DNA from: Candidatus Moraniibacteriota bacterium
GTDB lineage: Bacteria; Patescibacteriota; Minisyncoccia; Moranbacterales; UBA1568
Assembly (NCBI GenBank): GCA_008012175.1
Contig: SSEF01000011.1
Coordinates: forward strand, 6,413-70,412
Direction: 5' to 3'
DNA: 64,000 bases
The notes under the pieces are model-generated. The model had not been told where the DNA came from, did no database searches, and saw only the letters and a program-made list of their open reading frames with translations. Shown piece by piece: positions 7,090 to 63,095 of the stretch. Each line of letters opens with the position of its first letter. Position 1 is the first letter of the stretch. The position numbers and the translations under genes were made by a program.

Positions 7090-7389
<300 letters not shown>

Positions 7390-16440: not shown

Positions 16441-16586
16441 TCTTGGAGCCAGCCTGGCTCTCGGTGCTCTAGCGGGCTCTTGGAGCCAGCCTGGCTCTCG
16501 GTGCTCTAGCGGGCTCTTGGAGCCAGCCTGGCTCTCGGTGCTCTAGCGGGCTCTTGGAGCCAGCCTGGCTCTCGGTGCTCTAGCGA
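16441..16586. repeat. 37-nt tandem repeat, about 4 copies (TCTTGGAGCCAGCCTGGCTCTCGGTGCTCTAGCGGGC).
   Basis: Direct reading. It lies in the convergent intergenic region between the 12268 gene and PCNA. Confidence 0.9.
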
Positions 16587-16598
16587 GTCCTTGACGTA

Positions 16599-17618
16599 CT
16601 AGCTAGCGATAAACTGCGCCAAAGAGCTCTTGGGGAGCTCGACCCGCGACGGCATGTAAAAATAGACCAGATCCTCATTGACGATGCCCATGTCATATCC
16701 TAGACCTGCGGCGGTGGAAGGAAGGTTTAGAAAGCTTTTTTTATAAACAAATAAAAAACCAACTCTCTTACGCAACAATGCGGCCTCGCCTTTGACATAC
16801 AAGTCGACAAAAACAGCCTTCTTGTTCTCGTTGGCTTGCCACGACGTCGCCTTGAGCAAACTGCTCGCTGCAAATTTACACGGTGCCACAGCTTTCTCGC
16901 CGCAAACACTCGTCGGTCTGAAGGCCACTTTGGCGGTCGCGTCGATATCGCACATGCTCAGCTCGAGCCAAGGCTCCGAGTAGGTTAGCTCCAGAGCCGA
17001 GTCCGATGACGAGTTCCACAGAGCCAATTTCTTGCACATGCCACAAAATCTATGCGCAGTCGGCAGGCTCAAACTCAGCATCGGCTCGCCGCAGCCAATC
17101 TCAAAACAAGAGGCCTCGGCGGACTCGGTGGCCCGGCGGGTCAGGCGCAGCTCAAACTGGGCCTCGGCGTGCGGAGTCTCGCTAGAAATATCCAAGGCCG
17201 CCGCCTCTTCTGTCGACAGGCAGATTCGAATGGCATTGTATTTTGCGACGCGGCGAAAAATAGTGTTTAACGACTTGACGGACACGCCGATGCAAAACTC
17301 CTTCGCGCACACATAGTCTTGCAATTCGGTCAGGACCGCCGTGGCCGCCAGGTGTTGGTTTGGACCGCACGCATAAATCTTCAATTGCCGCGCCGGCAGA
17401 CACTTGATCTCGAGCGTCTCGCAGACACCATGGAGCGACTCGACTAGTCGGCCCAACGCCTCGGCGTTCAATAACCTGGCCTCAAAGAAACTCGAACTTT
17501 TCCGCTTCTTGCTGGCCGTAACATTGGTCGCAGCGCCGTCCGGGGCCGGGCGCTTTCCCGGCGGCTGCTTGTACTCCAAAACTTCTTCTTCTTCTTGATC
17601 GGACAGAGACGCCATCAT
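16599..17618 (-). CDS. PCNA: PCNA sliding clamp homolog with an acidic/basic N-terminal extension. A candidate 66-nt in-frame intron lies at 16771..16706.
   Basis: FFEARLLNAEALGRLVESL matches the PCNA N-terminus (MFEARLVQGSILKKVLEAL). The C-terminus ...GYDMGIVNEDLVYFYMP parallels IADMGHLKYYLAPK once the GTAAGAG...CCGCAG segment is removed. A TATA lies about 55 nt upstream. Confidence 0.65.
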   Translation of the reverse strand: MMASLSDQEEEEVLEYKQPPGKRPAPDGAATNVTASKKRKSSSFFEARLLNAEALGRLVESLHGVCETLEIKCLPARQLKIYACGPNQHLAATAVLTELQDYVCAKEFCIGVSVKSLNTIFRRVAKYNAIRICLSTEEAAALDISSETPHAEAQFELRLTRRATESAEASCFEIGCGEPMLSLSLPTAHRFCGMCKKLALWNSSSDSALELTYSEPWLELSMCDIDATAKVAFRPTSVCGEKAVAPCKFAASSLLKATSWQANENKKAVFVDLYVKGEAALLRKRVGFLFVYKKSFLNLPSTAAGLGYDMGIVNEDLVYFYMPSRVELPKSSLAQFIAS

Positions 17619-17667
17619 CCTAGGGAGGAAAATAAGTTTATAATTTCGAAAAGAGGCCCCTTCTGTG

Positions 17668-17684
17668 CTTTTTATATACTACGT
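17668..17684. promoter_or_regulatory. Palindromic TATA (TTTTATATACTAC) shared by PCNA (-) and the basic-protein gene (+).
   Basis: It is about 55 nt from the PCNA ATG and about 12 nt from the plus-strand ATG. Confidence 0.45.
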
Positions 17685-17690
17685 ACACAA

Positions 17691-18038
17691 ATGCCACGTA
17701 AATCTAAAAAAGCAATTGCCACCGCGGCACGACTAGCTGTGGCGCGAGCGATGAAGATTAAGAGAGCGGCCATGTCGAAGACGGCGGCTAAAAAGAAAAA
17801 GAAGGGCACCTCGACCAAAAAGACGATACGGCGCCCGTGCGAGAGCAAGGAGGGCATGGCGCTCTACTTTAAAAAGGACGAGAGCAGGCCGCGACATCGC
17901 TGCTTGTCCACCATATGCAGCCGCTCCAAGAACCCCAACCTCCAGTTTGAGCGGCCAAAGAGCGGCATATGTCCTAGGATACGTGACGTGTTTACGGGCG
18001 AGACGATACGCAACGAACGCGCTCTATTCCGGAGCTAA
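17691..18038 (+). CDS. Small basic protein, histone H1-like or protamine-like, with a Cys cluster.
   Basis: MPRKSKKAIATAARLAVARAMKIKRAAMSKTAAKKKKKGTSTKK... The ATG is 12-20 nt after TTTTATATACTAC. Confidence 0.45.
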   Translation: MPRKSKKAIATAARLAVARAMKIKRAAMSKTAAKKKKKGTSTKKTIRRPCESKEGMALYFKKDESRPRHRCLSTICSRSKNPNLQFERPKSGICPRIRDVFTGETIRNERALFRS

Positions 18039-18089
18039 TAAAAAGAATAATAATACCGCCGGAGGGTGGGTCGGCCGGTAAAACAAGGA

Positions 18090-20030
18090 ATGATGGCCGA
18101 TGCTAACGATTCTTCGAGTGCTGATGATATTCGCGGCCGGGACGCCGGCGCCGGCAGGATACCGGCCAAAAAGCGGAGCATAGGAGCGGGACGCAAGCTG
18201 CGCGTTGACAACGCCACCCTCACTCGGCAACTGCGGCAAGTGCTACTGGCGGGGCACAACATAACATTTGACACGAGCCAGACCGATCGGACGACGATCA
18301 TCTCCGCCAACGCCATTTCCATTGCCAACGTGCAGCCCTTGGACACTCTGGTCGGAACGACCGGCGGCTCGCTCGTCAACGAGCCTTTGGACACGGTCCT
18401 CACCAGCTCATTGATCACGATGACTCGGACCAACGGAAACACGCAACTCGATTTGGAGATACCGGACACGCGCATCGTCAAGTACTATGACAGCACGCGC
18501 ACCTATACGAACACGAGCGCGAGTTTTATGAACGACGGAGTCAACTTTACCTACAACGGCCGCGAGTTTGTCGACACGAACCAGCTCGCCGCCGACAACT
18601 TCATCTTCAAGTACGCGCCCGACCCAAATTCCACCGCGCTCCAAGACGAGCTGAGCGTCTCGATCTCATCGAGCGTCTCCAATTTGCCCTGGCACCTCGA
18701 GAGCACCGCGAGCGCGCCCACCGCTGCGCTTTCGGCCACGCTGAACGGAGACTCTATCTATGCTACTTCATTTTCGGCCGCACAAGACTTGAAAATGTCC
18801 GCCACCAGGTACGCCACAGGGGGCCTGGCCTACCCCAACGACTACACCATCGTCTTGGCAGGCACGTTCCCGATCGACCAGACCGCGTCCAACACGTTCT
18901 TCAGCCTGTCGGGAACGACGACAATCTATCCGCTCTCGTTTGGCAACACGACCCTGCAAAGGGACGCTCTCGTGTATAATCTCGGCGAGGCTCATTACAT
19001 TCCCTATGTTCAAAACACGGGAATCTATGTGTTTCGAGTGTCCTTCACGACCGCCTTCACCTCCCTCCTAGACGTCTTCTTCAACGGCCACAAGGTCTAC
19101 ACCAACGCCATCTCGAACACGCTCACGGCCAAATCGCTCGGCCTCGGCGGCCTGCTCAGCCTCGGCTCCTCAACAAACACGGCCTCCTTTTCCATGTCCC
19201 TGCTCACCATGATCGGTTATGCCCAGGCGCTCTCCGATCAACAATGTATTTCGGTGAGCAAAGCGCTCAATTTCGCCAAGCAAGTCTTGCCCGCCAGCAT
19301 CCCCTATCCCAGCGCGCCCACGGCACTCATTCGCGCGCCCAGCATGAGCGCCACGTCCATAAGCGGCTCGGTTTCGCTATTTGGCACGGCACCGTTCGAC
19401 CTGCATCAGACCACGCCAGCCAACCAACCCAGCTATGTGACGCTCTACGGCGGGAGCATAGTTTTTCCCACGTACAACTTGAAATTTTCAGGCGCGCAAG
19501 CCAACATGCTCACCACGAGCGCGATCCCTGCTCGAGAGTCGCTCGTATCGGGCACCTTCGCCATAGCGTACTTGCCCAACGTGAGCGCGGCCAACGACAA
19601 CGAAATTCTGACGGTGGTGGTGCAGTCCGACAGCATCAAGCTCTTGACCCGCTACGTCGCCGGCGTGCACACCTTCTCGCTCGTGATGAACGGCACGCTA
19701 AAATGTAGCTCGGCCATTTCGCATGTGGCGGGCACAAACGACGAGCTCGTGCTCTTTTTGGTCAAGAATCAAACGTCCTTCGGCTTCGTCGCCGTGCGCG
19801 TCGACTCTCTAACAATAGTCGGCTCGTGCGCCTTCCCTTACGCCGCCGCAGGGAACGGCCTCAGCTCGCTCACGGTCGGCCGAACGAGCACGCCGACGAG
19901 CGTGTTTACGTACTTCCTGGGTGACATGTGGTTCTATCCGCGCTCGCTAGCCGGCTACGAATACAAGCTGCACACGGCGCAGTTCAAACAACTTTACAAC
20001 TTGCCACTCAGTGGCAGTATTTTTTCTTAA
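18090..20030 (+). CDS. Structural glycoprotein-like protein with two ConA/LamG-like regions.
   Basis: 647-aa protein from the ATG at 18090 in ORF 18066..20030. It is S/T/N-rich with many N-x-S/T sites and beta-strand-type segments (FFNGHKVYT, LVMNGTLK). Composition is similar to the 12268 gene product. Confidence 0.55.
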   Translation: MMADANDSSSADDIRGRDAGAGRIPAKKRSIGAGRKLRVDNATLTRQLRQVLLAGHNITFDTSQTDRTTIISANAISIANVQPLDTLVGTTGGSLVNEPLDTVLTSSLITMTRTNGNTQLDLEIPDTRIVKYYDSTRTYTNTSASFMNDGVNFTYNGREFVDTNQLAADNFIFKYAPDPNSTALQDELSVSISSSVSNLPWHLESTASAPTAALSATLNGDSIYATSFSAAQDLKMSATRYATGGLAYPNDYTIVLAGTFPIDQTASNTFFSLSGTTTIYPLSFGNTTLQRDALVYNLGEAHYIPYVQNTGIYVFRVSFTTAFTSLLDVFFNGHKVYTNAISNTLTAKSLGLGGLLSLGSSTNTASFSMSLLTMIGYAQALSDQQCISVSKALNFAKQVLPASIPYPSAPTALIRAPSMSATSISGSVSLFGTAPFDLHQTTPANQPSYVTLYGGSIVFPTYNLKFSGAQANMLTTSAIPARESLVSGTFAIAYLPNVSAANDNEILTVVVQSDSIKLLTRYVAGVHTFSLVMNGTLKCSSAISHVAGTNDELVLFLVKNQTSFGFVAVRVDSLTIVGSCAFPYAAAGNGLSSLTVGRTSTPTSVFTYFLGDMWFYPRSLAGYEYKLHTAQFKQLYNLPLSGSIFS

Positions 20031-20091
20031 ATGTATTGTTTTGAAATAAAAAAAGAGAATTGTTGCATATGAAAAATTTTTATTCTAAAAA

Positions 20092-21357
20092 TTATTCGGC
20101 AATAGGTAACGGCCCTCCCAGAGGCAGGAGGCTACGAATCCAAAGAAGAAAAGTCCACTGGCGGTCAACAAGCTCATTGTGCCAGTTGATCTTTATGGCC
20201 GCGCTCGTAGCCCACTCGTCGCTCGGCCGCGCTCGCAGTATATAGTGACCCGCCAATGGTCCGCCGTCAAAATGCACGAGGCCGTACATTTTTCCGTCCC
20301 AAAAGAGACGATACTCTTTCGGCTGGCTGAGGAGGAGGCGGCGGCGCGGCGGCTTCGGAACGAGCTTCGCTGAGGACGAGAGGCGAGCGAGGGCGAACGC
20401 TTTCCCGACCCCATGCCTGTGCCAGCTCTGCGGACACAAAGACTTCCAGCACACATGTCGCTCTTCCTCCTCCTCCTCCTCCTCTTCCTCCTCATCCTTG
20501 TAAGCTCTGAGCGCAGCCGAAGCCCAAGAGGCTCGCCAGTAGGCCGACGACTTGGCCGAATAATGGTCGAGATTGTCGACGAATTTCGGATCGAGCAACA
20601 AATTACAATAGTCCGTGTCGTCGAGACGGTAGAGCCAATCCAAGCGCTCCGGCATCCGACCGACCGACCGACCCCTGAATTTGTGTTTTCTTCTCCTCAT
20701 TCTCTGCGTTGCCAGCCCAAATGCCCTACTTGATTGCTCCTCCGCCATGCCGACCCGATTCGTTGGATCAACCAATGGTTGTTCGGCCGCACCCAATCTC
20801 GAAGCCGGATCCGGGGCCGCCTCGTAATCGACAAAGACTTGCTCGAGGAAAAAGACGATCGGCCGAGGCGGAGCAAAATAACTAAACTGTCTGTAGGCGG
20901 TTACGAGCAGGTCAGGGTCGTGACGTGGCCGACTGCCGTCGACCATCTTGACCCACCGGCTCCGAGCAATGCGACGCTGCGAAAGCACCAGATATCGCTC
21001 CGCCTGGTTCTGATAAACGAGCCGCCGCACCGGCTCAATAGGACCCAGTACCACGTATTCGGCCGGGTCGGCCAGCCCTAGACATGTGACACAGGATAAA
21101 GAGCACTCCGCCGCGCCGCCGCGGCGAGGCACAGTCATGGCGGACTGCGTCCAAAAACTGCACATGAGCTGTTGGAGCCGGGGTCCGTCGTGCGGGCCCG
21201 TCAAGTTATAAAAAATGGCGTTCCAGTGACCAGTGTCGATAGGCGCGCCGTACCAAAGACTAAACACGGTGCGAAAGAAGGCGTTGTAGAGGCGATGAGC
21301 CTCCTTCTTGTAGAGCTGAACTCGCTCGTGAAATTCGCTGGTGCTTGGCTGAAACAT
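20092..21357 (-). CDS. Hypothetical protein with a poly-Glu tract.
   Basis: 421-aa ORF. It contains the 49-nt segment RRIARSRWVKMVDGSRPR, shared in inverted orientation with nt 700-748. Confidence 0.45.
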   Translation of the reverse strand: MFQPSTSEFHERVQLYKKEAHRLYNAFFRTVFSLWYGAPIDTGHWNAIFYNLTGPHDGPRLQQLMCSFWTQSAMTVPRRGGAAECSLSCVTCLGLADPAEYVVLGPIEPVRRLVYQNQAERYLVLSQRRIARSRWVKMVDGSRPRHDPDLLVTAYRQFSYFAPPRPIVFFLEQVFVDYEAAPDPASRLGAAEQPLVDPTNRVGMAEEQSSRAFGLATQRMRRRKHKFRGRSVGRMPERLDWLYRLDDTDYCNLLLDPKFVDNLDHYSAKSSAYWRASWASAALRAYKDEEEEEEEEEEERHVCWKSLCPQSWHRHGVGKAFALARLSSSAKLVPKPPRRRLLLSQPKEYRLFWDGKMYGLVHFDGGPLAGHYILRARPSDEWATSAAIKINWHNELVDRQWTFLLWIRSLLPLGGPLPIAE

Positions 21358-28670: not shown

Positions 28671-28758
28671 GACCGAGTTACGTTGGCGTAAAATCAAGAG
28701 AGTATTTCTAACTTGAAAAATTCGCGCAGTTGGTATTATTTGATCTTGTGTAAAAGAA

Positions 28759-28797
<39 letters not shown>

Positions 28798-28827
28798 AAT
28801 AATTACAAACAACAACAAACGACAAAT

Positions 28828-32327: not shown

Positions 32328-32531
32328 TTTTCTTATAGATCAGATATTTGATAAGTAAACCGTCTAGCAGAGTCTCCTTTATACGGAGCCAGCCAAACAA
32401 GAATACAATGTTGCTATGTGCAACACAAACACAATTTTTTCTTGTTTAATAAGTCTTCGTAAAGTAGCCCTGCTCGCCAGGCGCTCTGCTCACCAAGTAG
32501 CTTTGCTCGGAGAGGCGAGAGATTGACAGGC

Positions 32532-32572
<41 letters not shown>

Positions 32573-32639
32573 AAAAAAGAGAGTTGAGTATTTTTTAAAA
32601 ATTTTATTTCAAGTCAAAAAAGAGAGGGCGAGCGGGCGC

Positions 32640-35635: not shown

Positions 35636-38113
35636 ATGTCCATTTCGCCATCGTCCATTGAAGGAGCACAACAGTTTGCCGATTTGTCGGCCAAACTATA
35701 CGAATACGTGACGAAGAACGGAAAGGGTCTGTCCGCCCTAGAGCAAACCACCTTCTTGGCACGTACCACCCTCATCGCCTCAGGTATCTTGAAGAGCGCG
35801 GGCAAACGTAAACAGTTTTCGAATTTTGTTAATACGTTTATTGAGATCATTGCCGTATTGCAGAATATGCAATTGTCTTCGCAAAAGGAGGTGTTGCTGT
35901 CTATCGATTTTATCGTTAGCCTCCTATTGAAGGGAATGAAGGATGCTCTCCGCATTCAAGAGGCTGTAGAGGAGAAACTGGCCACGGCTGATGTCTTGCT
36001 GGACAAAAACCCGTTTGAGTTGGTGGAATATAATTGGAATCCGGAGACGGGTTCATTTGAACGATTGCACGTCCCAATGTTGTTGAACGATATGTTGAAG
36101 ACGCTCTATGCAAAAGTGAAGGAGGACGAGTCATCCGCGGCCGAGGAAAAGGTTGGGATGTCCGAATCTGACGCGGCTAGGTTGTCTGGGGAGAAGAAGG
36201 AGCTAGGAGAGGAGGAAAAGCTGTCGGGAACTGGAGAGGAGAAGGAGCCGGGAGAGGCGAAATTTGGCGCAGAGTCGGGAATTGAGGGAGCGCAAGCCGA
36301 GCCGGGAACGAATTTGACGGAAAAAGAACAACTTGAAGGAGTTGTGAAAACTGGAGAGGCCGGGCAAACCGATGGAGAGGCCGCCCCGTCCCAATTCGAG
36401 CACATTTTATCAGGTTCGAATTTTCAAATCTTTATACATAAGCCATCTGTAAATGTGACATACTGCAAATATATAGAATCGGAGTCGGTCGCGCAGCCAG
36501 TTATTCCAAATCCGGAGCCCGCGGCAGTGAATGAGGAGCCCGCGGCAGTGAATGAGGAGCCCGCGGCAGTGAATGAGGAGCCCGCGGCAGTGAATGAGGA
36601 GCCCGCGGCAGTGGATGGCAAAGAGACTCCGCTAAAAGAGGATGGCAAAGAGTCGGAGGAGGAGGAAGAGCCAGTTTGGCCAGAAGGAATGGAGCCGGCT
36701 CCCATGAAAGATATCTGGCCAAAAGAACCGACCGAGGAGGAGGAGTCTTCGACCGAGGAAGAGGAGCCTTGGACCGAGGAAGAGGATGATTTCTTTGAGG
36801 CCAGGTTATTGAACGCCGAGGCGTTGCGCCGACTAGTCGAGATCAAGTGTCTGTCGGCGCATGAAGAGGCTGTAAAAACCGCGCCAGAGGGAGGCAATGA
36901 GACTATTGACAAAGAAACTGGCGAAGCCGAACCAAAAGAGTCCAAACCGGAACCTGGCCCTACCGAAAAGCCGGAGGAGCCCAAAGAATCCAAAGCTGAG
37001 AAACAGACGGGACGGGAAGCCGAGGAGCCGGGTGAGTCCAAGTCGGTGGAGCCTGGTGAGACCGAGCCGAAAGAGTCCAAACCGGAACCTGGCCCTACCA
37101 AGCTGGAGGAGTCGGGAGAGACCAAGCTGGAGGAGCTGACTACTGAGCCGGGTGCTGTCGAGGAAACGACGGGTCGGGAAGCCCAAGAACCTGGCGAGAC
37201 CAAGACGGAGGACGAGTTGGGACAGCAAACGAAACGTAGCGAGCACTATTCTAAAGTGAAGAGTGCTTTGTATTGGCTAGCCGACACTCTAGCTTCGTCC
37301 AACCAATCGGCCGACGAGAGCGGAGGCAAAGTACGCAGCAGCGAGAGACTCGACCAGCTGGAGAGCCTCGAAACTCTCATAAATTCGTGGATAACGAGCC
37401 AGAGCTTTTCATCGGCCGAATACGCTCTCATTTTCAAGCTGATTAGGACAATCGAAACGCAATGCTACAAGACGTTTCAAGACGTTCGGCAGACTTTTGA
37501 ACTTAGTAAATGGTACGTGGCCCTCCCAAAAACTTCTCTTTTTCTTTTAGATACCTCTATATACTTTTTCTTTTTTAGCTTGACAGCTTTTGACGGCCTA
37601 AAGATAACCGCCGAGAACAATCCTTTCGAGTGGCCCAAAGAAGCCATTTTAAAAAAGTTTTCGACTGTAGCCAAGGCTCTTGTCCAAATCGCGAAAGGAG
37701 AGGCTGACCGAAGCGGCCCGCTCACTGACTTTCTCTGCGCTGCCCACGAGATGGATGGCGCCACTCGGCGTAAGAAGGCGATGGACCTGGTGGCTTATGG
37801 TGAGCGATACTGTTTCGACCTTTCGGACTATTTGTTTCTCCATTTGATGGGAAACGTACCCAGCCATGTCCTTCCTGTCCGCCCCAACGACGGCTTGTAC
37901 GCCGAACCCGTGTTGAAGCTCGCTCAACGACTGCTTCGCTTGTACAACAAGACCATCAAACTGCTGTATTTCAAGGATTCGCCGGAACCTCTTTTTAACG
38001 AGGACTCGCCATACGAGCAGAGCATTGTCGACATCAAGGTCCTCTTTGACTGCTCCCTCGAGCACAACCGTGAGGCCAGTCGCCAGAAGTGGCAAGCCGG
38101 GGAGGCTCACTAA
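35636..38113 (+). CDS. Large acidic repeat protein of 825 aa. It has two candidate in-frame introns and an embedded PCNA-derived fragment.
   Basis: (EPAAVNE)x5, an E-rich tract and PEPGPT/KESK repeats are present. A 63-nt AT-rich GT...TATATAG segment lies at about 36413-36475 and a 66-nt GTACGT...TTTTTTAG segment at about 37516-37581. Both are stop-free. About 70 nt at 36790-36858 are near-identical to the PCNA 5' coding region. Confidence 0.5.
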   Translation: MSISPSSIEGAQQFADLSAKLYEYVTKNGKGLSALEQTTFLARTTLIASGILKSAGKRKQFSNFVNTFIEIIAVLQNMQLSSQKEVLLSIDFIVSLLLKGMKDALRIQEAVEEKLATADVLLDKNPFELVEYNWNPETGSFERLHVPMLLNDMLKTLYAKVKEDESSAAEEKVGMSESDAARLSGEKKELGEEEKLSGTGEEKEPGEAKFGAESGIEGAQAEPGTNLTEKEQLEGVVKTGEAGQTDGEAAPSQFEHILSGSNFQIFIHKPSVNVTYCKYIESESVAQPVIPNPEPAAVNEEPAAVNEEPAAVNEEPAAVNEEPAAVDGKETPLKEDGKESEEEEEPVWPEGMEPAPMKDIWPKEPTEEEESSTEEEEPWTEEEDDFFEARLLNAEALRRLVEIKCLSAHEEAVKTAPEGGNETIDKETGEAEPKESKPEPGPTEKPEEPKESKAEKQTGREAEEPGESKSVEPGETEPKESKPEPGPTKLEESGETKLEELTTEPGAVEETTGREAQEPGETKTEDELGQQTKRSEHYSKVKSALYWLADTLASSNQSADESGGKVRSSERLDQLESLETLINSWITSQSFSSAEYALIFKLIRTIETQCYKTFQDVRQTFELSKWYVALPKTSLFLLDTSIYFFFFSLTAFDGLKITAENNPFEWPKEAILKKFSTVAKALVQIAKGEADRSGPLTDFLCAAHEMDGATRRKKAMDLVAYGERYCFDLSDYLFLHLMGNVPSHVLPVRPNDGLYAEPVLKLAQRLLRLYNKTIKLLYFKDSPEPLFNEDSPYEQSIVDIKVLFDCSLEHNREASRQKWQAGEAH

Positions 38114-38690: not shown

Positions 38691-40571
38691 TTAGTAGCGC
38701 TGATGATGCGGCGGCGGCACAGTAAAGTTTAGCGGTTTAGCTGTAGTTGCTGTTTGCGGAAAGGGCGGATGAGGCTGGAACTGAAGAGGCGGTTGAGGCT
38801 GGAAGAGTGGCTGAGGCGGTTGGAGTGGCCGCTGGAAGTGCGGCTGAGGCTGGAAGTGTTGATACATATTGGTCGGCGGAGGCGTAGGCAAATGGTATAT
38901 TTCGGACGGGCGGGGCGAGAACATTTGTGGCGGCATCGGCGGCATCGGCGGTTCCGCGTCGCTGCGGCGGCTCGACTGCTGCGACGAACTATTCCTCCTC
39001 TGCTGCTGCTGTTGTTGGGGCGGCTGCTGGGCTGCGTAGGGCCCCTCGTGAGTCTCGCTGTCGAAGGACGCGTCAGCAGGTCGGTCCTGGCTCAGCCGGA
39101 AAGCGTGAATCGAGCGACCGATTATCCAAAAGACGATAACAACCAAAACGTAGCATCTGGCTTTGCCGGGACCGCTCGCTCCGACCGAAGGGTCGAAAAT
39201 CTCACGGGCGTACTCTCCGAAATTTGTGTAAATGAGGCACGTGAGCGTCTTCAAGATGGACATTTTGTCGGCCAAATTCTCCGGCCGGCTCATAAAAGTC
39301 CAATATTGCTCGAACGCTAGCTTGAGCACGCTGTTGACGGCCGAGGCGATCAAACGATACGTGGCCCGCTCGCTCGCCGTCATCTTGTCCAAGTTCACAA
39401 AGAGGTCGACGACCATGTTGACGACATTATTGCCGATATCGTGTTTGGTGCTCTCGCGGTAGAATTGATCGTGGTCCTCGCCGCTCCTCGGCCCCCTCTC
39501 GCCCTTTTCGCCGCCGCCGCCGCCCGCCCGCTCCTTCTCGCCGCCCGCCCGCTCCTCCGACGCGCCGGCGCCATTCGCTCGGTCTTTTTGTCGCTCGTCC
39601 GTAACGAACGTCTTCATGTACTGATCCCGCGTCGGGTTGTTCAAGCCTTCGCCGCTGGCGCCGCGGCCCTCGTTGCCGTCCGTGCCTGCGCCGGCCCCAG
39701 ATGTGGGGATTTGGTTGGTAAGCGCCTCGACCACCTCTTCGATGAGCCGGCTGTTTTTCGAGCACACGTCCGCAAGATCCGAGCTTATTTGGGCGCGGGA
39801 CCTTTCTGGAGCGCTGCCTCCGCAAGCTTCGATAACGACGTCGGCGGCGGCCTGGCCTATGATCCGCGCGCATCTATGGGTCGACTCATCCGCGCGCTCA
39901 TCGAGTTTCGAACGCTTGTCGGAAGCCGCCTCCGCGGCGGATAGTTTACGCTTCCTGCTGCCGCGTGCTTCAGCCGCGGCCTCATCTACGGTTTCAGCCG
40001 CGGTCTCTGTTGCCGCCGCGCCGGCGAGATCTGTTAGGTCCATGCTAGGGCTGGCGGCCGAGGCGGCGGTCGGGATGGTTATAGTTGCCGAGGCGGGAGT
40101 AGTTATTGTGGTGTTCAAAGCAAGAATATGGCTCGCTGCCGTAGTGGCCGGGTCCGGGGTGGATGTAGGAATAGCCGCAGGAATAGTTGTAGGAGTAGAG
40201 GCGGCAGCGGCAGCTTGAACTGCTGCTATTTCGTCGAGACCTTCTTCTTGCCCCTGCTGCTGCTGCAGATCGTGCTGCTGATCCGGCTCCGGAGCGGCAG
40301 TAGAGGTGAATCCGGGCGGAGTACGAGAGACTTCGACGATTTGACAGGACGTTATCGAGTTGTCGAATAAAAACCCGTCCTCGCTGCCGTCGTCGGCCGA
40401 GCCGAGGAGATTGCCCTGCTGCTCGGTCTCGTAGCGGCGCGTGTCCAAAAGACGCGTGTCTAGAAACCGGTTGCTGCCGCCGGCGCGACCATGATTCGAT
40501 TTAATTAACGTGTAGTTGTTGTCGAGAGGCATTTGCATGCGCGGGTTCGGTGAGGGAGCGTTGAGTCTCAC
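38691..40571 (-). CDS. Low-complexity protein with an internal hydrophobic segment and a Pro/Gln-rich C-terminus. It may be matrix- or tegument-like.
   Basis: 626-aa ORF. It has Ala/Thr-rich tracts, a Gly-rich ERAGGEKERAGGGGGEKGERG stretch, CYVLVVIVFWIIG, and PPxY-like motifs. Confidence 0.4.
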   Translation of the reverse strand: MRLNAPSPNPRMQMPLDNNYTLIKSNHGRAGGSNRFLDTRLLDTRRYETEQQGNLLGSADDGSEDGFLFDNSITSCQIVEVSRTPPGFTSTAAPEPDQQHDLQQQQGQEEGLDEIAAVQAAAAASTPTTIPAAIPTSTPDPATTAASHILALNTTITTPASATITIPTAASAASPSMDLTDLAGAAATETAAETVDEAAAEARGSRKRKLSAAEAASDKRSKLDERADESTHRCARIIGQAAADVVIEACGGSAPERSRAQISSDLADVCSKNSRLIEEVVEALTNQIPTSGAGAGTDGNEGRGASGEGLNNPTRDQYMKTFVTDERQKDRANGAGASEERAGGEKERAGGGGGEKGERGPRSGEDHDQFYRESTKHDIGNNVVNMVVDLFVNLDKMTASERATYRLIASAVNSVLKLAFEQYWTFMSRPENLADKMSILKTLTCLIYTNFGEYAREIFDPSVGASGPGKARCYVLVVIVFWIIGRSIHAFRLSQDRPADASFDSETHEGPYAAQQPPQQQQQQRRNSSSQQSSRRSDAEPPMPPMPPQMFSPRPSEIYHLPTPPPTNMYQHFQPQPHFQRPLQPPQPLFQPQPPLQFQPHPPFPQTATTAKPLNFTVPPPHHQRY

Positions 40572-40676
40572 TTTAGCAATAAATTGTGTGTGTGCGAGAG
40601 AGGAAGTTTGCCATGTTGCAATTTTTTATTTATCTTAAATTTACCTAGCAAATGATCAACAACTCTCGCACACAGC

Positions 40677-41894
40677 ATGTCCTTTTCAAAGACTTGGTTC
40701 GGCAGCTCAAAGGCCAAAAAGAGCGCGCGCTCATCGTACGCCTCTACCACCGCCCCGACTTGCCATGTGAAGCGATGCGGGGGCAACGTGTTCAAATTCT
40801 TTCCGAATCGGAAGGCCGCCACAGAAAAGTGGCAAAGTGTCATTCGAAACTGGACCGAGGATGACTTTCTCGTGAAACAAATGCGCCGGGACGACGTGTT
40901 TTACAAGGCCTCGAACATGATTTGCGGGCCGACGAACGCCGGAAAGTCCATGTTCATTTCGTGGTTCCTGCTCAATCTGATGCACGTGCACCGCGACAAG
41001 CGCTTCCTCATCTTCATCTTCTCGGAAACGAGCCAGGCGCTCACCAAACTCGAAGACATTCAATCCATCTTGCTAAAAGACGAACCGCCCCTCGTCGTCT
41101 CCGACTACGACCGAGCGTGCAGCGAGCGCAAGAACCTCACCGTGTGGACCAACAAAATCGAGCAGATCAAGCAGGCGTTCAACACGATCGAGGCCTACTA
41201 CAAGGCCCTGCAAGAGCTGACCGAAAGCGGGGACGTGCCCGCCACCAACTTGCCCCAGCTCGTGTTTAGCAAGCTCCAGCAGGAGAACCGCGATTTCGAC
41301 CTGGGGCTCGTCGAGAAGCTGGCGAGCTTCACCGACTACATCTTCTACTTTGACGACTGCCTCGAGACCGTCCTCAACCCGAAAGCGAACGGGGCCAAGG
41401 AGCTCTTGTCCAAGTTGCAGACAACGAATCGGCACTTTTTCATCACGACCGTGTACAGCTTGCAAAACATCAAAATCAAGTCCGAGGTGTTTTGCGGCAA
41501 CCTCACCAACATGTTTGTGATCGGCCCGTTTAACGAGATCGACACGACCGTCTTTGAAAAATACAACGCCCTGCTAAAGGCCCGTTTCGGCCAGCAGTCC
41601 AACATGGCGCTGTATAACGCCGGGCTCGCCCAGATATTCAAAAAGCCGGCCTACACCGCACAGCTCTTCTCTAAGCGCTTTCCGGACGCCATCTATTGGG
41701 GCATTTTGCCCCTCGAGTACATAAAGAAGATGGAGGCCAAGGAGGCCCGCCGAATCGGATTGAAGCGGAGCGCCAACGAATGCGTCAACGAGCACATGAA
41801 AAATAAGCGGCCCGCCCTCCGCCCGTCGGTCCCCTCGGCCTCTTCGGCCTCCCCGGCGACGATAATAAAAACCATAAAGCTCAATAATAAATAA
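40677..41894 (+). CDS. A32/FtsK-HerA-like DNA packaging ATPase.
   Basis: Walker A ICGPTNAGKSMF and Walker B IFYFDDC are present, with the downstream NRHFFITT / VFCGNLTNMFVIG arrangement typical of NCLDV A32 and polinton/adenovirus packaging ATPases. The N-terminal CHVKRCGGNVFKFFPNRKAATEKWQ is a zinc-finger-like (THAP-like F-x-FP...W) stretch. Confidence 0.65.
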   Translation: MSFSKTWFGSSKAKKSARSSYASTTAPTCHVKRCGGNVFKFFPNRKAATEKWQSVIRNWTEDDFLVKQMRRDDVFYKASNMICGPTNAGKSMFISWFLLNLMHVHRDKRFLIFIFSETSQALTKLEDIQSILLKDEPPLVVSDYDRACSERKNLTVWTNKIEQIKQAFNTIEAYYKALQELTESGDVPATNLPQLVFSKLQQENRDFDLGLVEKLASFTDYIFYFDDCLETVLNPKANGAKELLSKLQTTNRHFFITTVYSLQNIKIKSEVFCGNLTNMFVIGPFNEIDTTVFEKYNALLKARFGQQSNMALYNAGLAQIFKKPAYTAQLFSKRFPDAIYWGILPLEYIKKMEAKEARRIGLKRSANECVNEHMKNKRPALRPSVPSASSASPATIIKTIKLNNK

Positions 41895-41901
41895 AGTTTA
41901 T

Positions 41902-44035
41902 TTAAAAAAAGACAAAATAGTTTTGGATTTGCACGTGGACTCGTCCGCGGTCCGGCGTCCATTCCATTATTTTTGGAGGAGGAGGCGCCGACGGCGGATG
42001 CTCGCGAGGCCCTTCTTGCGGCTCTTGTTGCTGCTCTTGTAGCCTAAACTGCTCTTGTTGCTGCTCTTGTAGCCTAAACTGCTCTTGTTGCTGCTCTTGT
42101 TGCCTAAACTGCTCTTGTAGCCTAAACTGCTCTTGTTGTTCCTCTTGTTGTAGATCTTGCTGCACCAGCTGCTGCGCACGCTGTTCCCTGGAATCGCACA
42201 TGCGCTCGGCGATAATATAAATCAAATCGTTCCAAAATCGCTGCTGCGCTCCCAACATATGAGACAGGCCGGTCTCAATGAGCTTGGCATGGCCCAGGGC
42301 GTGATGTATCGAGAAGGCTTGTTCCAGTAAATGCACGTTTAGCCGTCTCGGGTCTTCATCCGCCTGGTTTGTAGTCTCCACCGTCTCCTCTACCTCCTCT
42401 ACCTCTACTTCCGCCACTCCCTTGTGTTCCGTCGGTCTCGCTTGCTCCGCCACCGGATCCGCCACTCGCTCTGCTGACGGCGGGAAAATTCGGTCCATAA
42501 TCTCAAATTTCCGTCCCAACGCTCCGGCCAAATCTCGAACGGCCTCGTCCCTCGCCAGGTTGGCCAGGTTGGAGCCCAAGTGAGCCACTTGGATCGGACG
42601 GCTCGGAGGTTTCGGATGGCGAGCCATTCGGTAAAACGACGGCACGTCCAAATTGCACCACTTGCTGCTCTTCAAGTGTTCGCGGTGCCGAGAAAAAAGC
42701 CGCTCGACGCTAGGCTCGGCCAAAAAATCGTCGGCCGGCATGAGGGGCGAGAAGAGGCGGCGGAAAGGCATAATCACTTGGACGCGGACCTGCATGATAA
42801 AGTCATACAATTGAGCGTTAAAAGCGAACGAGAACGTCTCGTCCTTGTCGTCTTGATAAACGAATTTCTTGAGCGCCGACTTGAAGCGGGTCTTTGATTT
42901 GGCGTGGTTAAACTGTTTCTTGACGCACGCTCGAATCTCTGCCGCGTTCATCTCCAAATCGTACCAGGCCGGCGAGACGATGAGTTTCGGCAAATCGGCC
43001 TCGAAGCGGGTAAACCTAAAAGAGAAAGAGATGTAATGAGCGACTCGTTTTAGAGCGAGAAGGCCGACAAGGATTACCAGTCTTCGAAAAGGCATAGATC
43101 GTCGTGCAACTTTAGATTCGAGTTGTCATCGATATTGATGAAGGAGGCCACTTTGTGTTTGCACATGCGGTCGACCGCTTCAAATAGCTCGTTAATGTTG
43201 CGATAAAACTCGAAAGCCTCCCGCTTCGCCTCTCCTGCTCCGGCGGCCTCCTTCACCACCCTCGCCTCTCCTGCTCCTGCTCCCTTCGCTACTTTCGCCA
43301 TCTTCGCCGGCCTCGCTCCTCGCTCTGGCCAAAGCAGAGCCATAGTGGTCAGGTGAGTCTTTTTTGTGAAACCCAATCTGGAACCAAGAGGAGCCAGTTT
43401 CTCGGCACAATTTATCAGTCGGCTCGCACAATGCTCTATATATGAAAAAAAAAAAGAGAGAAAGGTAAGTAAAATGTGGAGAAAAAGAAAGGAGAAGGAG
43501 GGTAGGGCTAACTTTGGATTAGATTGGCCAGATTCTTTTTGATTTCGGCTAGTAAAATAAAAGCCTGCTTGGCACGTATATCCAGTCCAGCCATCAAGTC
43601 GAAGACCATGTCGAGCGAGCACGACAGCTGCCCGTCGTGAGGACGGTTCTTTTTATTTCGTCTATCGGTGGTCTCGGGAACATTGCCCTTTTTCTGCGGC
43701 CGAGGCTGACTGCTGGGCTGGCTGTTGAGTTGGCTGTTGGGCTGGCTACGGGACTGGCTGCTGGGCTGGCTGTTGAGTTGGCTGTTGGGCTGGCTACGGG
43801 ACTGGCTGCTGGGCTGGCTACGGGGCTGGCTACGGGACTGGCTGCTGGGCTGGCTGTTGAGTTGGGGCTGGCTACTGGGCTGGCTGTTGAGTTGGCTGTT
43901 GAGTTGGGTGGATTGGTCACTAAACTGCCTGGACCAACCAGACCGCCGTTTGTAAGACAGCCGCCGTTTTATGCTAGTTGCGGCTGCGGCATTACCGCTT
44001 CCGCAGTTGTTGATGTTTCCTTTCGTCGTAGTCAT
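41902..44035 (-). CDS. Hypothetical protein, proposed 3-exon gene (44035..43513, 43435..43078, 43015..41902).
   Basis: ORFs 43508..44035, 43074..43622 and 41902..43095 each end in a stop that overlaps a GT donor (AAAG|GTTAGC and TG|GTAATCC). Each is followed by a pyrimidine tract and an AG that restores an open frame in the next ORF. The products include SQPxSQ repeats and a QQEQFRLQEQ repeat. Confidence 0.4.
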
Positions 44036-46827: not shown

Positions 46828-47406
46828 TCACGTGCCTAAATTATCTTCATTTTGTCGGCCCGGGGCTCTTCGAGCGCGGCCGAGTGTGCACGGGGAGCAT
46901 TTTAGTTCGGCGATCACAGGAAAAACCTGCTGCTCTGCGTCGTAATAGTAAGCGAGCCGCGGTGGCCGACTTGACATGCCGTGGAGGCGCGGCCACACGT
47001 TCCTCGTCAACTCCAGTTCCCGGGCCCGGCACTGCTCCGAGCGCGCGAGTACCTCGCTTCCGGTCGCGCGGCGCGCTTGCGGCAGGTCCAGCGAGAATTG
47101 AATGAAATAGGTGGAGCGGTGTCGGCCAATACTTTGGATTTCGAGACAAATTGGCCGCTCCGCTCCGCCACAGGGCGTCCGGCGGAGGTCGTGGTAAGCG
47201 GCCAGAGCGGTTCGGAGACAGGCTGGCCTTCGGTAGTAGGCCACGATTGAGTTGGGACGCGCAGGGAGCGTGGCCTCGTCGATGAGCGACACGGGGAAAT
47301 CGTAACTCTGGAGTTTATCGTCCGGGTGCTGCCGCCGCGACCGTGGCCCGGGTTCTAGCCCGGCCATGAAGTCGGCGAATAGCAGCGCTTCCTGGCTTCT
47401 AACCAT
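46828..47406 (-). CDS. Hypothetical protein.
   Basis: 192-aa ORF. It is followed upstream by a (GA)n spacer. Confidence 0.4.
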   Translation of the reverse strand: MVRSQEALLFADFMAGLEPGPRSRRQHPDDKLQSYDFPVSLIDEATLPARPNSIVAYYRRPACLRTALAAYHDLRRTPCGGAERPICLEIQSIGRHRSTYFIQFSLDLPQARRATGSEVLARSEQCRARELELTRNVWPRLHGMSSRPPRLAYYYDAEQQVFPVIAELKCSPCTLGRARRAPGRQNEDNLGT

Positions 47407-47469
47407 GTTAGAGAGAAAGAGAGAGCGAGAGAGACAGAGAGAGAGAGAGAGTAAAGCAACAAGAGTTTT

Positions 47470-49064
<1,595 letters not shown>

Positions 49065-51681: not shown

Positions 51682-54047
<2,366 letters not shown>

Positions 54048-59833: not shown

Positions 59834-62502
59834 TTATTCGGTCGGGAAAAGGTTTAGTTTGCGCAGCCGGTCAGCCACAAGAGTGGCGGGCTGGTTGAAA
59901 ATTGCTCGCAGGGCCTTTAGGAGGAAGGCCTGGTCGACGTGGATCTGCAAACTGGATCGGCATCGCGACAAAACCACGTACAAAGTCCGTAGTATGTTGT
60001 TCTTGAGGACTGTGTCCCCGAGCAAATACATCTTTTCGTTGGTGAGCGTGGCTCCTTGAACACAAAAAACTGTTTGCGCGTAGTTGCTCGTCCAGTTGAA
60101 GCACATGTACATGACTTGGCGGCGACCCATGAGCGGCGAATGGTAGGCACAAGGCGCGTGCGAGGACGAAGTCGGTTCGTTGCGCCGGGCGAGATCGCAT
60201 TGCTCGCAAAGGTAGCGAACGACCGGCCGGCACGATGCGAATTGCCGCGTCTCCAGGTCATAAAACACCATGTGCAATGAGCGCGCCATCGACTGCATAT
60301 CGGGAGCGAGGCGCTGCGTCACCTTCATGATTGTGAGTTCGTCCAGCGCTAGTTTATGTTGGGCGGCTGTGGCGGATAGTTTGGCCACGAGCATGGTTTC
60401 AAAAACAGGCCGGGCCTCGGCGTCCAGCTCGGCGTCGGCAAAAAAGAAGCCGATAAAGACGCCGACCTGGCCATTGTAGTTGCCTTGCTGGGAGTTGTTT
60501 TCGCGACAGCGGATAAACATCCCCGGGAAGAAGGTGTTTCGGCTGTTCATCAAGTTGGCCGGCACGTTGTTTTGGATCGAGGCCACTTGCTTCTGGTCCG
60601 CGTCCGAGGCGAACATGAGCACGTTCCTGAGAGAGACGGGCAGGGCTCGGGCCCGCGAGGCGAGCCAGCAGTTTTGCGAAGCCGACGAGCGGTTAATGAG
60701 GCCCTTGCCGTCAATGTGGTCAAAGACGGTGAAGTTGAAGCTGTTCTCGTAGCCAATGACGATGGGTATCTGGAACGAAAAGAAGCGCTCGCGTAGACTC
60801 GCGCTCGCGCTCTTGAGGACGGCCGGCATGTCGTCGAGGGCGGCGGCCAGGTGCTCGTAAAAATCGAGCTCGGAGCGAAGCCAGGCCACCAGCGAGTTGG
60901 CCTGGCGCTGCGCCTCCACGAGCGATTCGAGAACTTTGTCCAGAGTCAGTTCGCGCTCCACATTGATGCTCCGATTGATCTTCTCGACCCACATGTGCAG
61001 CCACTTGTTCTCGAGTTTCGACGACGCGGCTTGGCTCGTCTCGCGCTTCGTCCGCGTTTGCCGGGCAATCACTTGCCTCAGCTGGAGGAGCAACTGTCGC
61101 AAACGACTGTTGCGCTCGGCCTCTCCTTCCTCACAGCCGTCTTTTCCGTCTCTTTCATCTTTTCCGTCTTTTCCGTCTTCTTCGTCCTCTTCGTCCTCCC
61201 CAGCCTCTTGTTTCTGGCCCCGCCCATGGCCCCGCGCCGCCACTCCCTGTTTGTTTGCAAATCGAACAATTCTAATGTTGGGTCCGTTCTCGCACTTGTA
61301 GGCGCACGGATATTTGTGAAAGAGCTCGCCGCTGTCGACGTCCCAGTTTATGAGTCCGCCCATCACAGGCGGCAACTGGCACGAGTCTCCAATCAGGATG
61401 CAGAATTTTTCGCGCAAAGCGTCGAGCACGGGGAAGAGCAGCTCTTGGTTGTACATGGACATTTCGTCAAAAACAAAGACTCGTCCCAGGTTGATGCGGT
61501 TCGTAATGTCTAAAAAGAGAGAGAGAGAGAGAGAGCACATGAAAGCACATGAAAAAAGAGAGAGAGCACATGAGCAAAAAGGATGGTTTTACATGGTTTG
61601 GCGAGGCCGGCCCTGATCGCGGCGGCGTATTGGCGTGGGTCGCAGCCGGGTTTCCGGATCGGCAGACCCATTTGTGAATGCAAAACCCGGGCAAAAGAAT
61701 AGGCATTGCGCGTCTTTGCGGTCGGGGTGGTGATGAGCACCCGCTCAAAGTGCTCGTCCTTGTACTGCCGTCGGTAGTACTCGCTAAAGAGCGGGCAGAG
61801 CCGCTCAATCTCAAAGGACTTGCCGACGCCTGGCGGCAGGTCAATCACCAACCAGCAGTCCGGCGACTTGACGTACTCGAATTTGACAAAGAAGAGGAAC
61901 ATGGCGAGAACGCCCACTTCAATCATTGAGCTCACTTGCACAAGTTTTTCATGTGGCGCCTCGGCCATAGCCTGCAGGAGCAGCATGTCGTCCTCGCTCC
62001 GCGGACAGCACATGCGGCAGAGCGCTTCCAAGAACTGGCGTTTGGCGGCCTCCGAAACGAGACCGCTGAGGTAATTATCGAGCCATTGGAATCCAGTTTT
62101 GTGTGTGGTCGGATCGAAAGGAATATTATAGTCGGGGATGGGCGCCCCGTCCAAATCGAGGACGGAGTAGCTGTCCGCTGCCAAAGCGTCCTCGCTCTCG
62201 TCCTCGGAGAGGTCGTCTACAAAAGTGAGGTTCTCTAGTCGACGAGGTTTCTTGATCGTAACCGCATCACCTGGTTGCTTAGACGCTGCGCGTTTATGGA
62301 TTCGTTGTCCCACGTCACCTTCTTTTTCTTCCGCGGGACCGTCGCCGCCTCTAGCGCCCTTCGCTTTTCGCCATCCACCAACCGCTCCTCTTTCTTTGTC
62401 GACGCCACCGACGTCATTGGCTCCTCTTTCTTTGTCGACGCCACCGACGTCATTGGCTCCTCTTTCTTTGGTGGCGCCGTCGCAGCTTTGACTCGTATAC
62501 AT
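59834..62502 (-). CDS. PIF1/RecD-like superfamily 1 helicase, 2 exons (62502..61593, 61509..59834). The true 5' end is uncertain.
   Basis: Walker A is LPPGVGKSF. Walker B is FVFDEMSM. The signature LIGDSCQLPPV is Pif1/UL5-like. The C-terminal TLYVVLSRCR resembles helicase motif VI. The intron is 83 nt, T|GTAAAAC...(TC)n...CTTTTTAG. Confidence 0.7.
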
Positions 62503-62999: not shown

Positions 63000-63095
63000 T
63001 AATGAGAGAGAGAGAGCAATGAGAGAGAGAGAGAGAGAGACAAAGAGACAAGTTTCGTAAAAGGGAGTTTATTCATAAAAAAAAGCACGCGTGCT

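Follow-up and report, generated by a model that had tools for sequence, protein, structure and literature searches.

The closest described systems are distant templated insertions ('filler DNA'), known from yeast (PMC11724301) and also from cancer and plant genomes. In these, a short copy of a distant sequence is captured at a double-strand break by non-homologous end joining after microhomology-mediated synthesis (PMC11724301); either orientation is possible, the donor is retained, the outer junctions have zero to a few nucleotides of microhomology, and the interior carries template-switch scars. A second class comprises the quasi-palindrome template-switch mutations of E. coli and yeast, in which an imperfect inverted repeat becomes perfect, and such point changes are a hallmark of strand switching in low-fidelity or repair synthesis (PMC7202029, PMC3820800, bioRxiv 10.1101/2023.08.09.552703); they also arise during break repair (PMC7202029, bioRxiv 10.1101/2023.08.09.552703).

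We conclude with high confidence that the window, that is, the whole 64-kb stretch of DNA that was analyzed, contains a real, recent and polymorphic copy of part of a PCNA-like gene within an orphan gene. This insertion is a known kind of event, an ordinary DNA-repair scar in an uncharacterised virus-like lineage. It resembles distant templated insertions in the retained donor, the possible orientations, the outer junctions, the internal scars and, on the proposed route, the capture by end joining, but here the event is a natural polymorphism of an uncultured virus-like genome, lies in a coding region and in frame, and would go back to a presumed break. It shares with quasi-palindrome mutations the perfected inverted repeat, but the corrections lie in opposite arms and in an ectopic copy, the donor keeps the imperfect repeat, and one arm coincides with the end of the fragment. 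Fork stalling and microhomology-mediated replicative switching likewise produces multiple switches per event, a microhomology skip (here of 30 nt) and a small duplication nearby, but our outer junctions are free of microhomology and the scale is tens of nucleotides rather than kilobases.

An inverted copy of a PCNA-like gene segment in an orphan gene

The two genes and the copied segment are as follows.

16599..17618, minus strand: donor gene, encoding a 339-aa PCNA-like protein with an N-terminal acidic/basic extension (Pfam PCNA_N and PDB matches)
17390..17490, minus strand: donor segment, residues ~44-76 of the PCNA-like gene, aligning with the start of the PCNA N-terminal domain
17409..17438, minus strand: 30 donor nucleotides skipped in the copy, bounded by TCGAG at 17439-17443 and 17409-17413
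35636..38113, plus strand: host gene, encoding an 825-aa orphan protein (NCBI TXH07708.1; open reading frame and protein searches)
36790..36860, plus strand: PCNA-derived insert of 71 nt, encoding FFEARLLNAEALRRLVEIKCLSA within the host reading frame and absent from the relative L002

The 71-nt insert is an inverted copy of the 101-nt donor segment, which lies 19.3 kb away and is retained intact within the PCNA-like reading frame. In the repeat search, 36790-36841 matched the reverse complement of 17439-17490 at 51 of 52 nt (self-blastn E 4.2e-18) and, after the 30-nt gap in the copy, 36842-36860 matched 17390-17408 at 18 of 19 nt. The two mismatches are C at 36827 against donor G (17453) and T at 36854 against donor C (17396). 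The preliminary description had reported about 70 nt at 36790-36858 as near-identical to the reverse complement of a PCNA segment, differing solely by a TCGAG-flanked 30-nt deletion and two substitutions. Both statements hold on alignment, the true end being 2 nt further at 36860; self-BLASTN gave E 4e-18 with no such match in shuffles, and the identity is 69 of 71 nt, set against a lower bound of 85%. Allowing up to three mismatches, the window has just two occurrences of the 37-nt exact core (0 in 100 shuffles), and only two high-complexity long-range exact repeats of at least 18 nt exist in the whole 64 kb. Insert and donor are read in the same codon phase (FFEARLLNAEALRRLVEIKCLSA versus FFEARLLNAEALGRLVESLHGVCETLEIKCLPA), and the repeat has the same sense in both mRNAs, which led us to reject antisense regulation between them.

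Because the donor segment aligns with the start of the PCNA N-terminal domain, we regard it as native to the PCNA-like gene. The donor protein scores just below the Pfam PCNA_N cut-off (E 6e-4; 19.9 bits against 20.3), and all three PDB sequence matches are PCNA, colinear over residues 41-169 (E 3e-4 to 0.015). A PDB search returned no PCNA match for the C-terminal half (residues 166-339), a single-sequence AlphaFold model reached a pLDDT of 38, too low for use, and a protein search found no homolog besides the protein itself. The name 'PCNA' reflects weak N-terminal similarity only. The earlier proposal that a clamp N-terminal peptide had been grafted into an unrelated protein stands as regards the in-frame graft; its PCNA label carries the same qualification, and the 23 grafted residues are unable to form a clamp domain.

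The host protein has an acidic low-complexity linker (residues 166-534, window positions 36131-37237, net charge -64) between two terminal regions that are richer in hydrophobic residues; the linker lies in a region of strong purine skew (GC skew 0.25 and AT skew 0.30 over 36001-37000). Searches with the host protein recovered itself and one relative, and exhaustive HMMER searches with its C-terminal region recovered only that relative and one spurious low-complexity match. Scans of IMG/VR, GTDB genomes and JGI metagenomes with the PCNA-like protein, the host protein and an exact 28-mer yielded no related loci, no record of the exact 825-aa host protein or its 527-aa neighbor was found elsewhere, and a literature search by run, locus tag and protein accession found nothing.

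The empty site and polymorphism among nearly identical genomes

The relative L002 (GCA_054404135.1 / SRR34691372), which differs from the window by ~1% substitutions (~99% identical), has an empty insertion site with a single ATGA (...GAAGAGG-ATGA-AGAGG..., junction GAGGATGA/AGAGG). Compared with it, the window carries ATGA, the 71 nt, a second ATGA and an adjacent extra tandem unit of 21 nt.

36765..36785, plus strand: extra 21-nt tandem unit AGCCTTGGACCGAGGAAGAGG, directly 5' of the insert, absent from L002
36786..36789, plus strand: left ATGA direct repeat, present once in the empty-site allele of L002
36861..36864, plus strand: right ATGA direct repeat, a 4-nt duplication relative to L002, resembling a target-site duplication

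The 21-nt unit departs from the preceding unit at 2 of its 21 nt, can be placed in more than one way within 36744-36785, and is associated with GAGGAG microhomology; it could be a separate, unrelated change in repeat number. At both outer junctions identity ends abruptly, at 36790 and 36860, with 0 nt of microhomology (left, host GATGA/TTTC versus donor TCGAG/TTTC; right, host GGCGC/ATGA versus donor GGCGC/GGCA), whereas the internal 30-nt skip has the 5-nt TCGAG microhomology. Self-blastn showed no similarity between donor and recipient beyond the insert, the flanks being unrelated, and on this ground homology-driven ectopic gene conversion was rejected. The host linker differs from that of L002 by at least five indels, which suggests that it is an indel hot spot and would support a break-repair reading. 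The contigs of two more distant polymerase relatives (L008 and L009) have no long-range short repeats; the PCNA and host genes lie outside these contigs.

A miniature transposable element with a target-site duplication would also leave a short insert, 4-nt direct repeats and an empty site in a relative. We reject this reading: the insert comes from a conserved domain of a single-copy core gene, its ends (TTTCTTTG... and ...GTCGGCGC) are not complementary and do not form matching terminal inverted repeats, only two copies exist in the 64 kb at up to three mismatches, and no transposase is linked.

Presence or absence in sister runs, which Logan assembled independently, was inferred from contig break points. 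Logan contigs derive from k=31 graphs in which each 31-mer is unique per accession (PMC12424806), and we predicted beforehand that the insertion copy, if present, would force the PCNA contig to end at window position 17483. The PCNA contig of SRR6439734, like that of one other run, stops exactly 30 nt inside the 37-nt exact repeat. The broken contig spans 16556-17483 at 100% identity to the window, and both SRR6439734 and one further sample yielded the cut product 16599-17483. In SRR6439735, by contrast, the contig continues without a break across 17454-17490, with 2 mismatches over 4,395 nt, and it does stop exactly 30 nt inside the other repeat, of 49 nt, at 20950. The unbroken PCNA contig implies that the insertion is probably absent or rare in SRR6439735, whose genome is elsewhere 99.95-100% identical to the window. 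No Logan contig yielded the insertion junction, and the guessed cut products meant to reach the site (38691-39620, minus strand, and 36797-38113) gave no record. Given that the PCNA contig is broken in two runs and unbroken in SRR6439735, the insertion is a genuine polymorphism of nearly identical genomes. More generally, short repeats in public sequencing runs can be genotyped by Logan contig break points. The preliminary description had called the event a recent intragenomic recombination or template switch and had proposed a comparison with related isolates; the native donor, the empty site in L002 and the polymorphism support its direction, its recency and its template-switch flavor.

Compensatory substitutions and the route of insertion

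With both substitutions in place, an inverted repeat that was imperfect (6/8) becomes a perfect 8-bp repeat ending at the last inserted base.

36826..36833, plus strand: left arm of the inverted repeat, GCGCCGAC, with a G to C substitution at 36827
36853..36860, plus strand: right arm, GTCGGCGC, with a C to T substitution at 36854; its end is the last PCNA-derived base

Only 16 of the 22,365 possible double substitutions of the 71-mer yield a perfect stem of at least 8 bp (p ~7e-4). The predicted DNA folding energy of the 71-mer is -8.1 kcal/mol without the substitutions (z +0.36), -10.7 with either alone and -13.8 kcal/mol with both (z -2.35); the 101-nt donor folds no better than shuffles (z ~0.1), and the second repeat pair in the window has no palindrome-perfecting changes. 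The two substitutions are non-random, compensatory quasi-palindrome corrections and not drift. They are reciprocal, one in each arm, and were not all templated from one arm. A single one-directional fold-back cannot explain both; this takes two switches or the mismatch repair of a hairpin.

On balance we favor, with some reservation, a very recent ectopic templated insertion in which a fragment was captured at a break in the acidic linker. A short DNA would have been copied, with the sense strand of the PCNA-like gene resident 19.3 kb away as template, by template-switch-prone synthesis that skipped the 30 nt between the two TCGAG repeats; the copy passed through, or was present as, a hairpin in which the two inverted-repeat mismatches were corrected, giving the perfect stem at the fragment's last base. 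The 71-bp product would then have been joined into a break in the purine-rich, repeat-rich linker, the ATGA duplication matching what fill-in of a 4-nt stagger and subsequent end joining would leave; the adjacent 21-nt unit may belong to the same repair. The 75-nt insertion keeps the host frame, which would account for its survival, and the 25 added residues in the disordered linker are probably neutral passengers rather than a functional clamp module. As to the route, we consider that capture by end joining specifically has about an even chance of being correct. Fragment capture at a staggered break fits better than one continuous replicative switch because of the ATGA duplication and the missing outer microhomology, although the 4-nt repeat is only moderate evidence for a staggered break, its chance probability being ~1/256 per alignment.

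The continuous route, of the class of fork stalling and template switching or microhomology-mediated break-induced replication, would be a single event that starts where a fork stalls or collapses in the acidic repeat and needs neither a free fragment nor end joining: the 21-nt unit is re-copied, synthesis jumps to the PCNA gene, slips 30 nt at TCGAG, folds back and re-enters the host 4 nt upstream of its exit. The internal microhomology jump and the quasi-palindrome corrections are consistent with such a path, as are the adjacent 21-nt tandem duplication, which likewise has two mismatches, and the purine-rich repeat tract, a likely fork barrier. We nevertheless consider it rather unlikely, given that both outer junctions lack the microhomology such mechanisms normally use and that staggered-break fill-in explains the 4-nt duplication more simply. 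An older insertion, predating the strain split and later excised between the ATGA repeats both in L002 and in the population of SRR6439735, with substitutions acquired after insertion, is improbable. The insert-donor divergence of 2/71 nt is near the 1% strain divergence, the ATGA repeats would permit precise excision, and gain followed by precise loss is compatible with a comparison that has no outgroup. This history, however, requires one gain and at least two independent precise losses instead of a single gain, random drift does not predict compensatory substitutions in one stem (p ~7e-4), and the SRR6439735 genome is otherwise 99.95-100% identical to the window.

That the insertion is an artefact, either a chimeric molecule or a mis-assembly in a metagenome-assembled genome, we find barely credible. 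The insertion is seen in full only in a single short-read metagenomic contig and other assemblies gave no insertion junction, but assemblers invent no k-mers, and three novel junctions plus two substitutions all require read support; moreover, a duplication flanks the insert, which is clean and in frame, and the PCNA contig breaks in two other runs exactly where a second 37-mer copy predicts. Selection for a useful peptide (an acidic tract with an FF motif, or an amphipathic helix) or for a nucleic-acid hairpin that raised the allele in frequency is also highly improbable. The metagenome-assembled genome carries the insertion allele, which at least two runs contain, and the DFFEARL that follows the EEEDD tract resembles EFFDAxE, the consensus of the FFAT motif, a VAP-binding short linear motif with an acidic tract ahead of its core that binds an MSP domain. 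Against this, evidence of selection is lacking, the hairpin has a mechanistic explanation, and the host protein is without known function or homologs. Only two of the six fragment frames are open (the PCNA sense frame and one antisense frame), and the in-frame state is thus a survivorship effect.

Implications for the evolution of the virus-like genome

The window contains two inverted repeat pairs, with arms 19.3 and 20.2 kb apart and both in open frames. It is a remote possibility that a recurrent process specific to this lineage deposits inverted copies of coding DNA, 50-70 nt long, ~20 kb away from the source sequence. If true, it would reflect the replication or packaging architecture of the virus-like genome, and its grafts would seed in-frame gene fusions and supply orphan genes with new peptide modules, in this case an FFAT-like acidic-FF motif. 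The 52-bp inverted repeat, which lies inside two genes in the same frame, is itself a potential substrate for a 19-kb inversion that would exchange the 3' parts of the PCNA-like and orphan genes as in-frame fusions. Grafts of this sort can give spurious domain matches or pass for chimeric assemblies, and their scars (the microhomology skip, the quasi-palindrome correction and the 4-nt duplication) indicate the type of repair that acts on the genome. The locus offers a clean, datable case in which a fast-evolving orphan gene in a virus-like genome gained new coding sequence, and the route of entry would be error-prone break repair, not gene transfer or whole-gene duplication.

The inverted copy and its donor gene

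The acidic linker of an orphan gene (the host gene) holds an inverted copy of part of a PCNA-like gene (the donor). The elements concerned are as follows.

16599-17618, minus strand: PCNA-like donor gene, 339 aa
35636-38113, plus strand: host gene, 825 aa, NCBI TXH07708.1
36765-36785: extra 21-nt tandem unit with 2 differences from the preceding unit, in the window versus L002 (the contig of an approximately 99% identical relative)

Repeat finding (pair I3) showed that 36790-36841 shares 51 of 52 nt with 17439-17490 read as its reverse complement. By explicit comparison the match resumes past a 30-nt gap in the copy, with 18 of 19 nt identical between 36842-36860 and 17390-17408, and therefore the copy comprises 71 nt drawn from a 101-nt donor segment. 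A TCGAG repeat bounds the skipped donor nucleotides (17409-17438) on each side, and the copy departs from the donor at two aligned positions, 36827 (C in place of G) and 36854 (T in place of C). The insert/donor match has an E value of 4.2e-18 in a BLASTN search of the window against itself. With up to 3 mismatches allowed, the window contains two occurrences of the 37-nt exact core, and 100 shuffles contain none. A k-mer scan found only two high-complexity, long-range exact repeats of at least 18 nt in the whole window. These comparisons uphold the preliminary description, which had reported an inverted, near-identical PCNA copy at the host gene with two substitutions and a 30-nt deletion at TCGAG microhomology, and had suggested self-alignment and inspection of related strains as checks.

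On the basis of sequence, the label "PCNA-like" is reasonable but is not proven for the whole protein, because the N-terminal matches are partial or below cut-off and no match to the C-terminal half is detectable among PDB sequences. In particular, the Pfam PCNA_N match (E 6e-4) falls 0.4 bits below the curated cut-off, and the only three PDB sequence matches, all of them PCNAs, are colinear across residues 41-169. The duplicated segment, approximately residues 44-76, aligns with the PCNA N-terminal domain right at its beginning and is thus native to the PCNA-like gene; copying proceeded from this gene into the orphan gene. A single-sequence structure model of the donor protein was useless (pLDDT 38), and no homolog was found in an index of 5.8 billion proteins. 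A 37-nt unit is repeated in tandem directly downstream of the PCNA-like stop codon (16441-16588), in four copies that are perfect or nearly so, and Logan contigs stop there.

The empty site and polymorphism among sequencing runs

The host protein has no Pfam domains, and an exhaustive HMMER search detected no homolog beyond one close relative, P0002, encoded on L002 (JBQVCE010018330.1 of GCA_054404135.1). This contig differs from the window by approximately 1% substitutions and several repeat-number indels in the linker, and it is empty at the insertion site, where it reads ...GACCGAGGAAGAGG-ATGA-AGAGGCTG... The window carries there, in order, the extra 21-nt tandem unit, ATGA, the 71 PCNA-derived nt, and ATGA. 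Because ATGA occurs twice at this site in the window and once in L002, the insertion proper amounts to 75 nt (25 codons); the 4-nt direct repeat on its two sides has one copy in the empty allele. The donor flanks share no microhomology with either outer junction.

The surrounding acidic, low-complexity linker spans residues 166-534 (25-28% Glu; net charge -64). Its DNA has a strong purine skew, is packed with short tandem units, and is an indel hot spot between strains; thus, it is plausibly a fragile site. Across 36131-37237, the window and L002 are separated by at least five repeat-unit indels, involving the copy number of EPAAVNE and DGKETPLKE and indels of SSAAE, ET, and TKGPGE. Differences are also densely grouped at 36720-36745, a stretch in which L002 carries the quasi-palindromic TGGCCGATCGATTGGCA; this may be another template-switch cluster.

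Logan contigs derive from a k=31 de Bruijn graph for each sequencing run, in which every 31-mer is unique (PMC12424806), and therefore any repeat of more than 31 nt must interrupt a contig at a point 30 nt inside it. In SRR6439735, contig L003 corresponds to window 16556-20950 with 2 mismatches and stops inside the window's other exact repeat (49 nt, 20921-20969), precisely 30 nt after entering it. It is continuous across 17454-17490, and thus the insertion copy is absent or rare in this run. We predicted beforehand that in an insertion-carrying run the PCNA contig would end at 17483, giving a truncated product equal to the translation of 16599-17483. As predicted, SRR6439734 and one further sample have precisely this product on record, from a contig 100% identical to window 16556-17483. 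The window's version of the neighboring gene is found in SRR6439730; SRR6439735 departs from that version at 20113 and 20192, and another of its contigs is 100% identical to the window across 2,458 nt. The insertion junction was not retrieved in Logan contigs. Graph topology, rather than reads, indicates that the insertion is real and is polymorphic among genomes 99.95-100% identical elsewhere, and it is therefore very recent. An assembly artifact is less likely, as is an older gain followed by repeated precise loss.

A third, unrelated run (SRR34691372) contains a strain, represented by contig L005, that is 98.8% identical to window 39707-42029, with indels, and encodes a 405-aa protein identical to that of 40677-41894. 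This strain and that of L002 may be one and the same.

The window contains a second short, inverted, ectopic duplication (700-751/20918-20969, extending to 690-751/20918-20981), with 49 nt exact and approximately 64 nt matching with 3 mismatches and a 2-nt indel. Its first copy lies in a minus-strand RING-finger-like gene that runs off the window start, and at its end this copy belongs to a native tandem array of 21-nt APSNDSP units, which makes this gene the probable donor. The second copy is read antisense inside a 421-aa gene (20092-21357, minus strand); with the minus strand encoding both genes, a stretch of approximately 50 nt would be complementary between their mRNAs. Contigs from SRR6439735 and SRR6439730 both end at 20950, and thus both populations have this repeat. 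The two high-complexity, long-range repeats of the window (17439-17490/36790-36841 and 700-751/20918-20969) are both inverted and of similar size, with arms 19.3 kb and 20.2 kb apart, respectively; spacings this alike would arise by chance in roughly 4% of cases.

Template-switch scars and the origin of the insertion

The donor sequences GGGCCGAC and GCCGGCGC make up an inverted repeat that is imperfect (6/8). With one change per arm, the copy's GCGCCGAC (36826-36833) and GTCGGCGC (36853-36860) form a perfect 8-bp inverted repeat, the right arm of which ends on the last PCNA-derived base. Among the 22,365 ways of making two substitutions in the 71-mer, only 16 produce a perfect stem of at least 8 bp.

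DNA folding energy of the 71-mer
No substitution: -8.1 kcal/mol, z +0.36
G to C at 36827 only: -10.7 kcal/mol, z -0.65
C to T at 36854 only: -10.7 kcal/mol, z -1.16
Both substitutions: -13.8 kcal/mol, z -2.35

Approximately 0.03 substitutions are expected per 71 nt at the approximately 0.05% divergence between insertion-bearing and insertion-free populations. The perfecting of quasi-palindromes is a recognized signature of template switching in DNA synthesis, including break-repair-associated synthesis (PMC7202029, PMC3820800, bioRxiv 10.1101/2023.08.09.552703). The two substitutions are scars, not drift, and the 30-nt skip between 5-nt repeats is of the same event class.

The event was recent and left internal template-switch scars, blunt outer junctions, and a 4-nt flanking duplication. 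The earlier reading of a recent recombination or template-switch event is supported and made more precise. We propose that low-fidelity, switch-prone synthesis would have produced a short PCNA-derived strand able to fold into a terminal hairpin, which end joining would then have captured at an acidic-linker break with a 4-nt stagger, in agreement with the yeast model of distant templated insertions (PMC11724301). The leading alternative is continuous replication with several template switches, which would account for the adjacent 21-nt duplication but leaves the missing junction microhomology unexplained. Selection for the peptide is less likely. The fragment is stop-free only in the PCNA sense frame and one antisense frame; because two frames are open and 75 nt keeps the downstream frame, an in-frame graft is what purifying selection would pass, and the in-frame state is not evidence of function. 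Furthermore, 23 PCNA-derived residues cannot form a clamp domain. The new DFFEARL behind the EEEDD tract is a candidate FFAT-like motif.

Because the two genes lie on opposite strands, the repeat has the same sense in either mRNA and no antisense pairing arises. The 52-bp inverted repeat is in the same codon phase in both genes, and recombination across it would, as a structural possibility only, invert 19.3 kb and swap their 3' parts in frame.

Genome context and significance

The contig (95,747 bp in NCBI; locus tags E6Q06_...) was deposited as a Candidatus Moraniibacteriota metagenome-assembled genome. Alongside the PCNA-like protein, it encodes a family B DNA polymerase, a TBP-domain protein, a Ser/Thr kinase, a 2OG-Fe(II) oxygenase, two phage-tail-collar proteins, and ankyrin, RCC1/LamG, and RING-like proteins; its other genes, the majority, are orphans. 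Judged by its genes, this content does not look bacterial and resembles that of viruses of eukaryotes, and the contig has most likely been mis-binned, coming instead from an uncharacterized lineage of large DNA viruses of eukaryotes. The polymerase, whose relatives are metagenomic proteins of approximately 700 aa, occupies two frames (51934-53052 and 53145-53762) split by a 92-nt element (53053-53144). This element has a 5' GT, a CTAAC branch-like site, a pyrimidine tract, and a 3' AG, and holds a (CT)n(GT)n microsatellite; its removal joins ...IIK to GFFKR..., matching the uninterrupted relatives P0007 and P0008. The interruption resembles an intron of the spliceosomal type.

The AT-rich intergenic regions of the window repeatedly contain long (CT)n or (GA)n microsatellites (7096-7146, 28754-28804, 32518-32603, 47402-47475, 53057-53115, 53774-53867, 61512-61571, and 63004-63077). 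They often adjoin a AATTTTATTT(T/G)AAAAA-like motif, with 20 loose copies (repeat family D6), and these may be transcription signals of the lineage.

The insertion belongs to an already known class of events, templated insertion with template-switch scars. It is in itself of modest interest, and it is more useful as a marker of the evolution of this genome.
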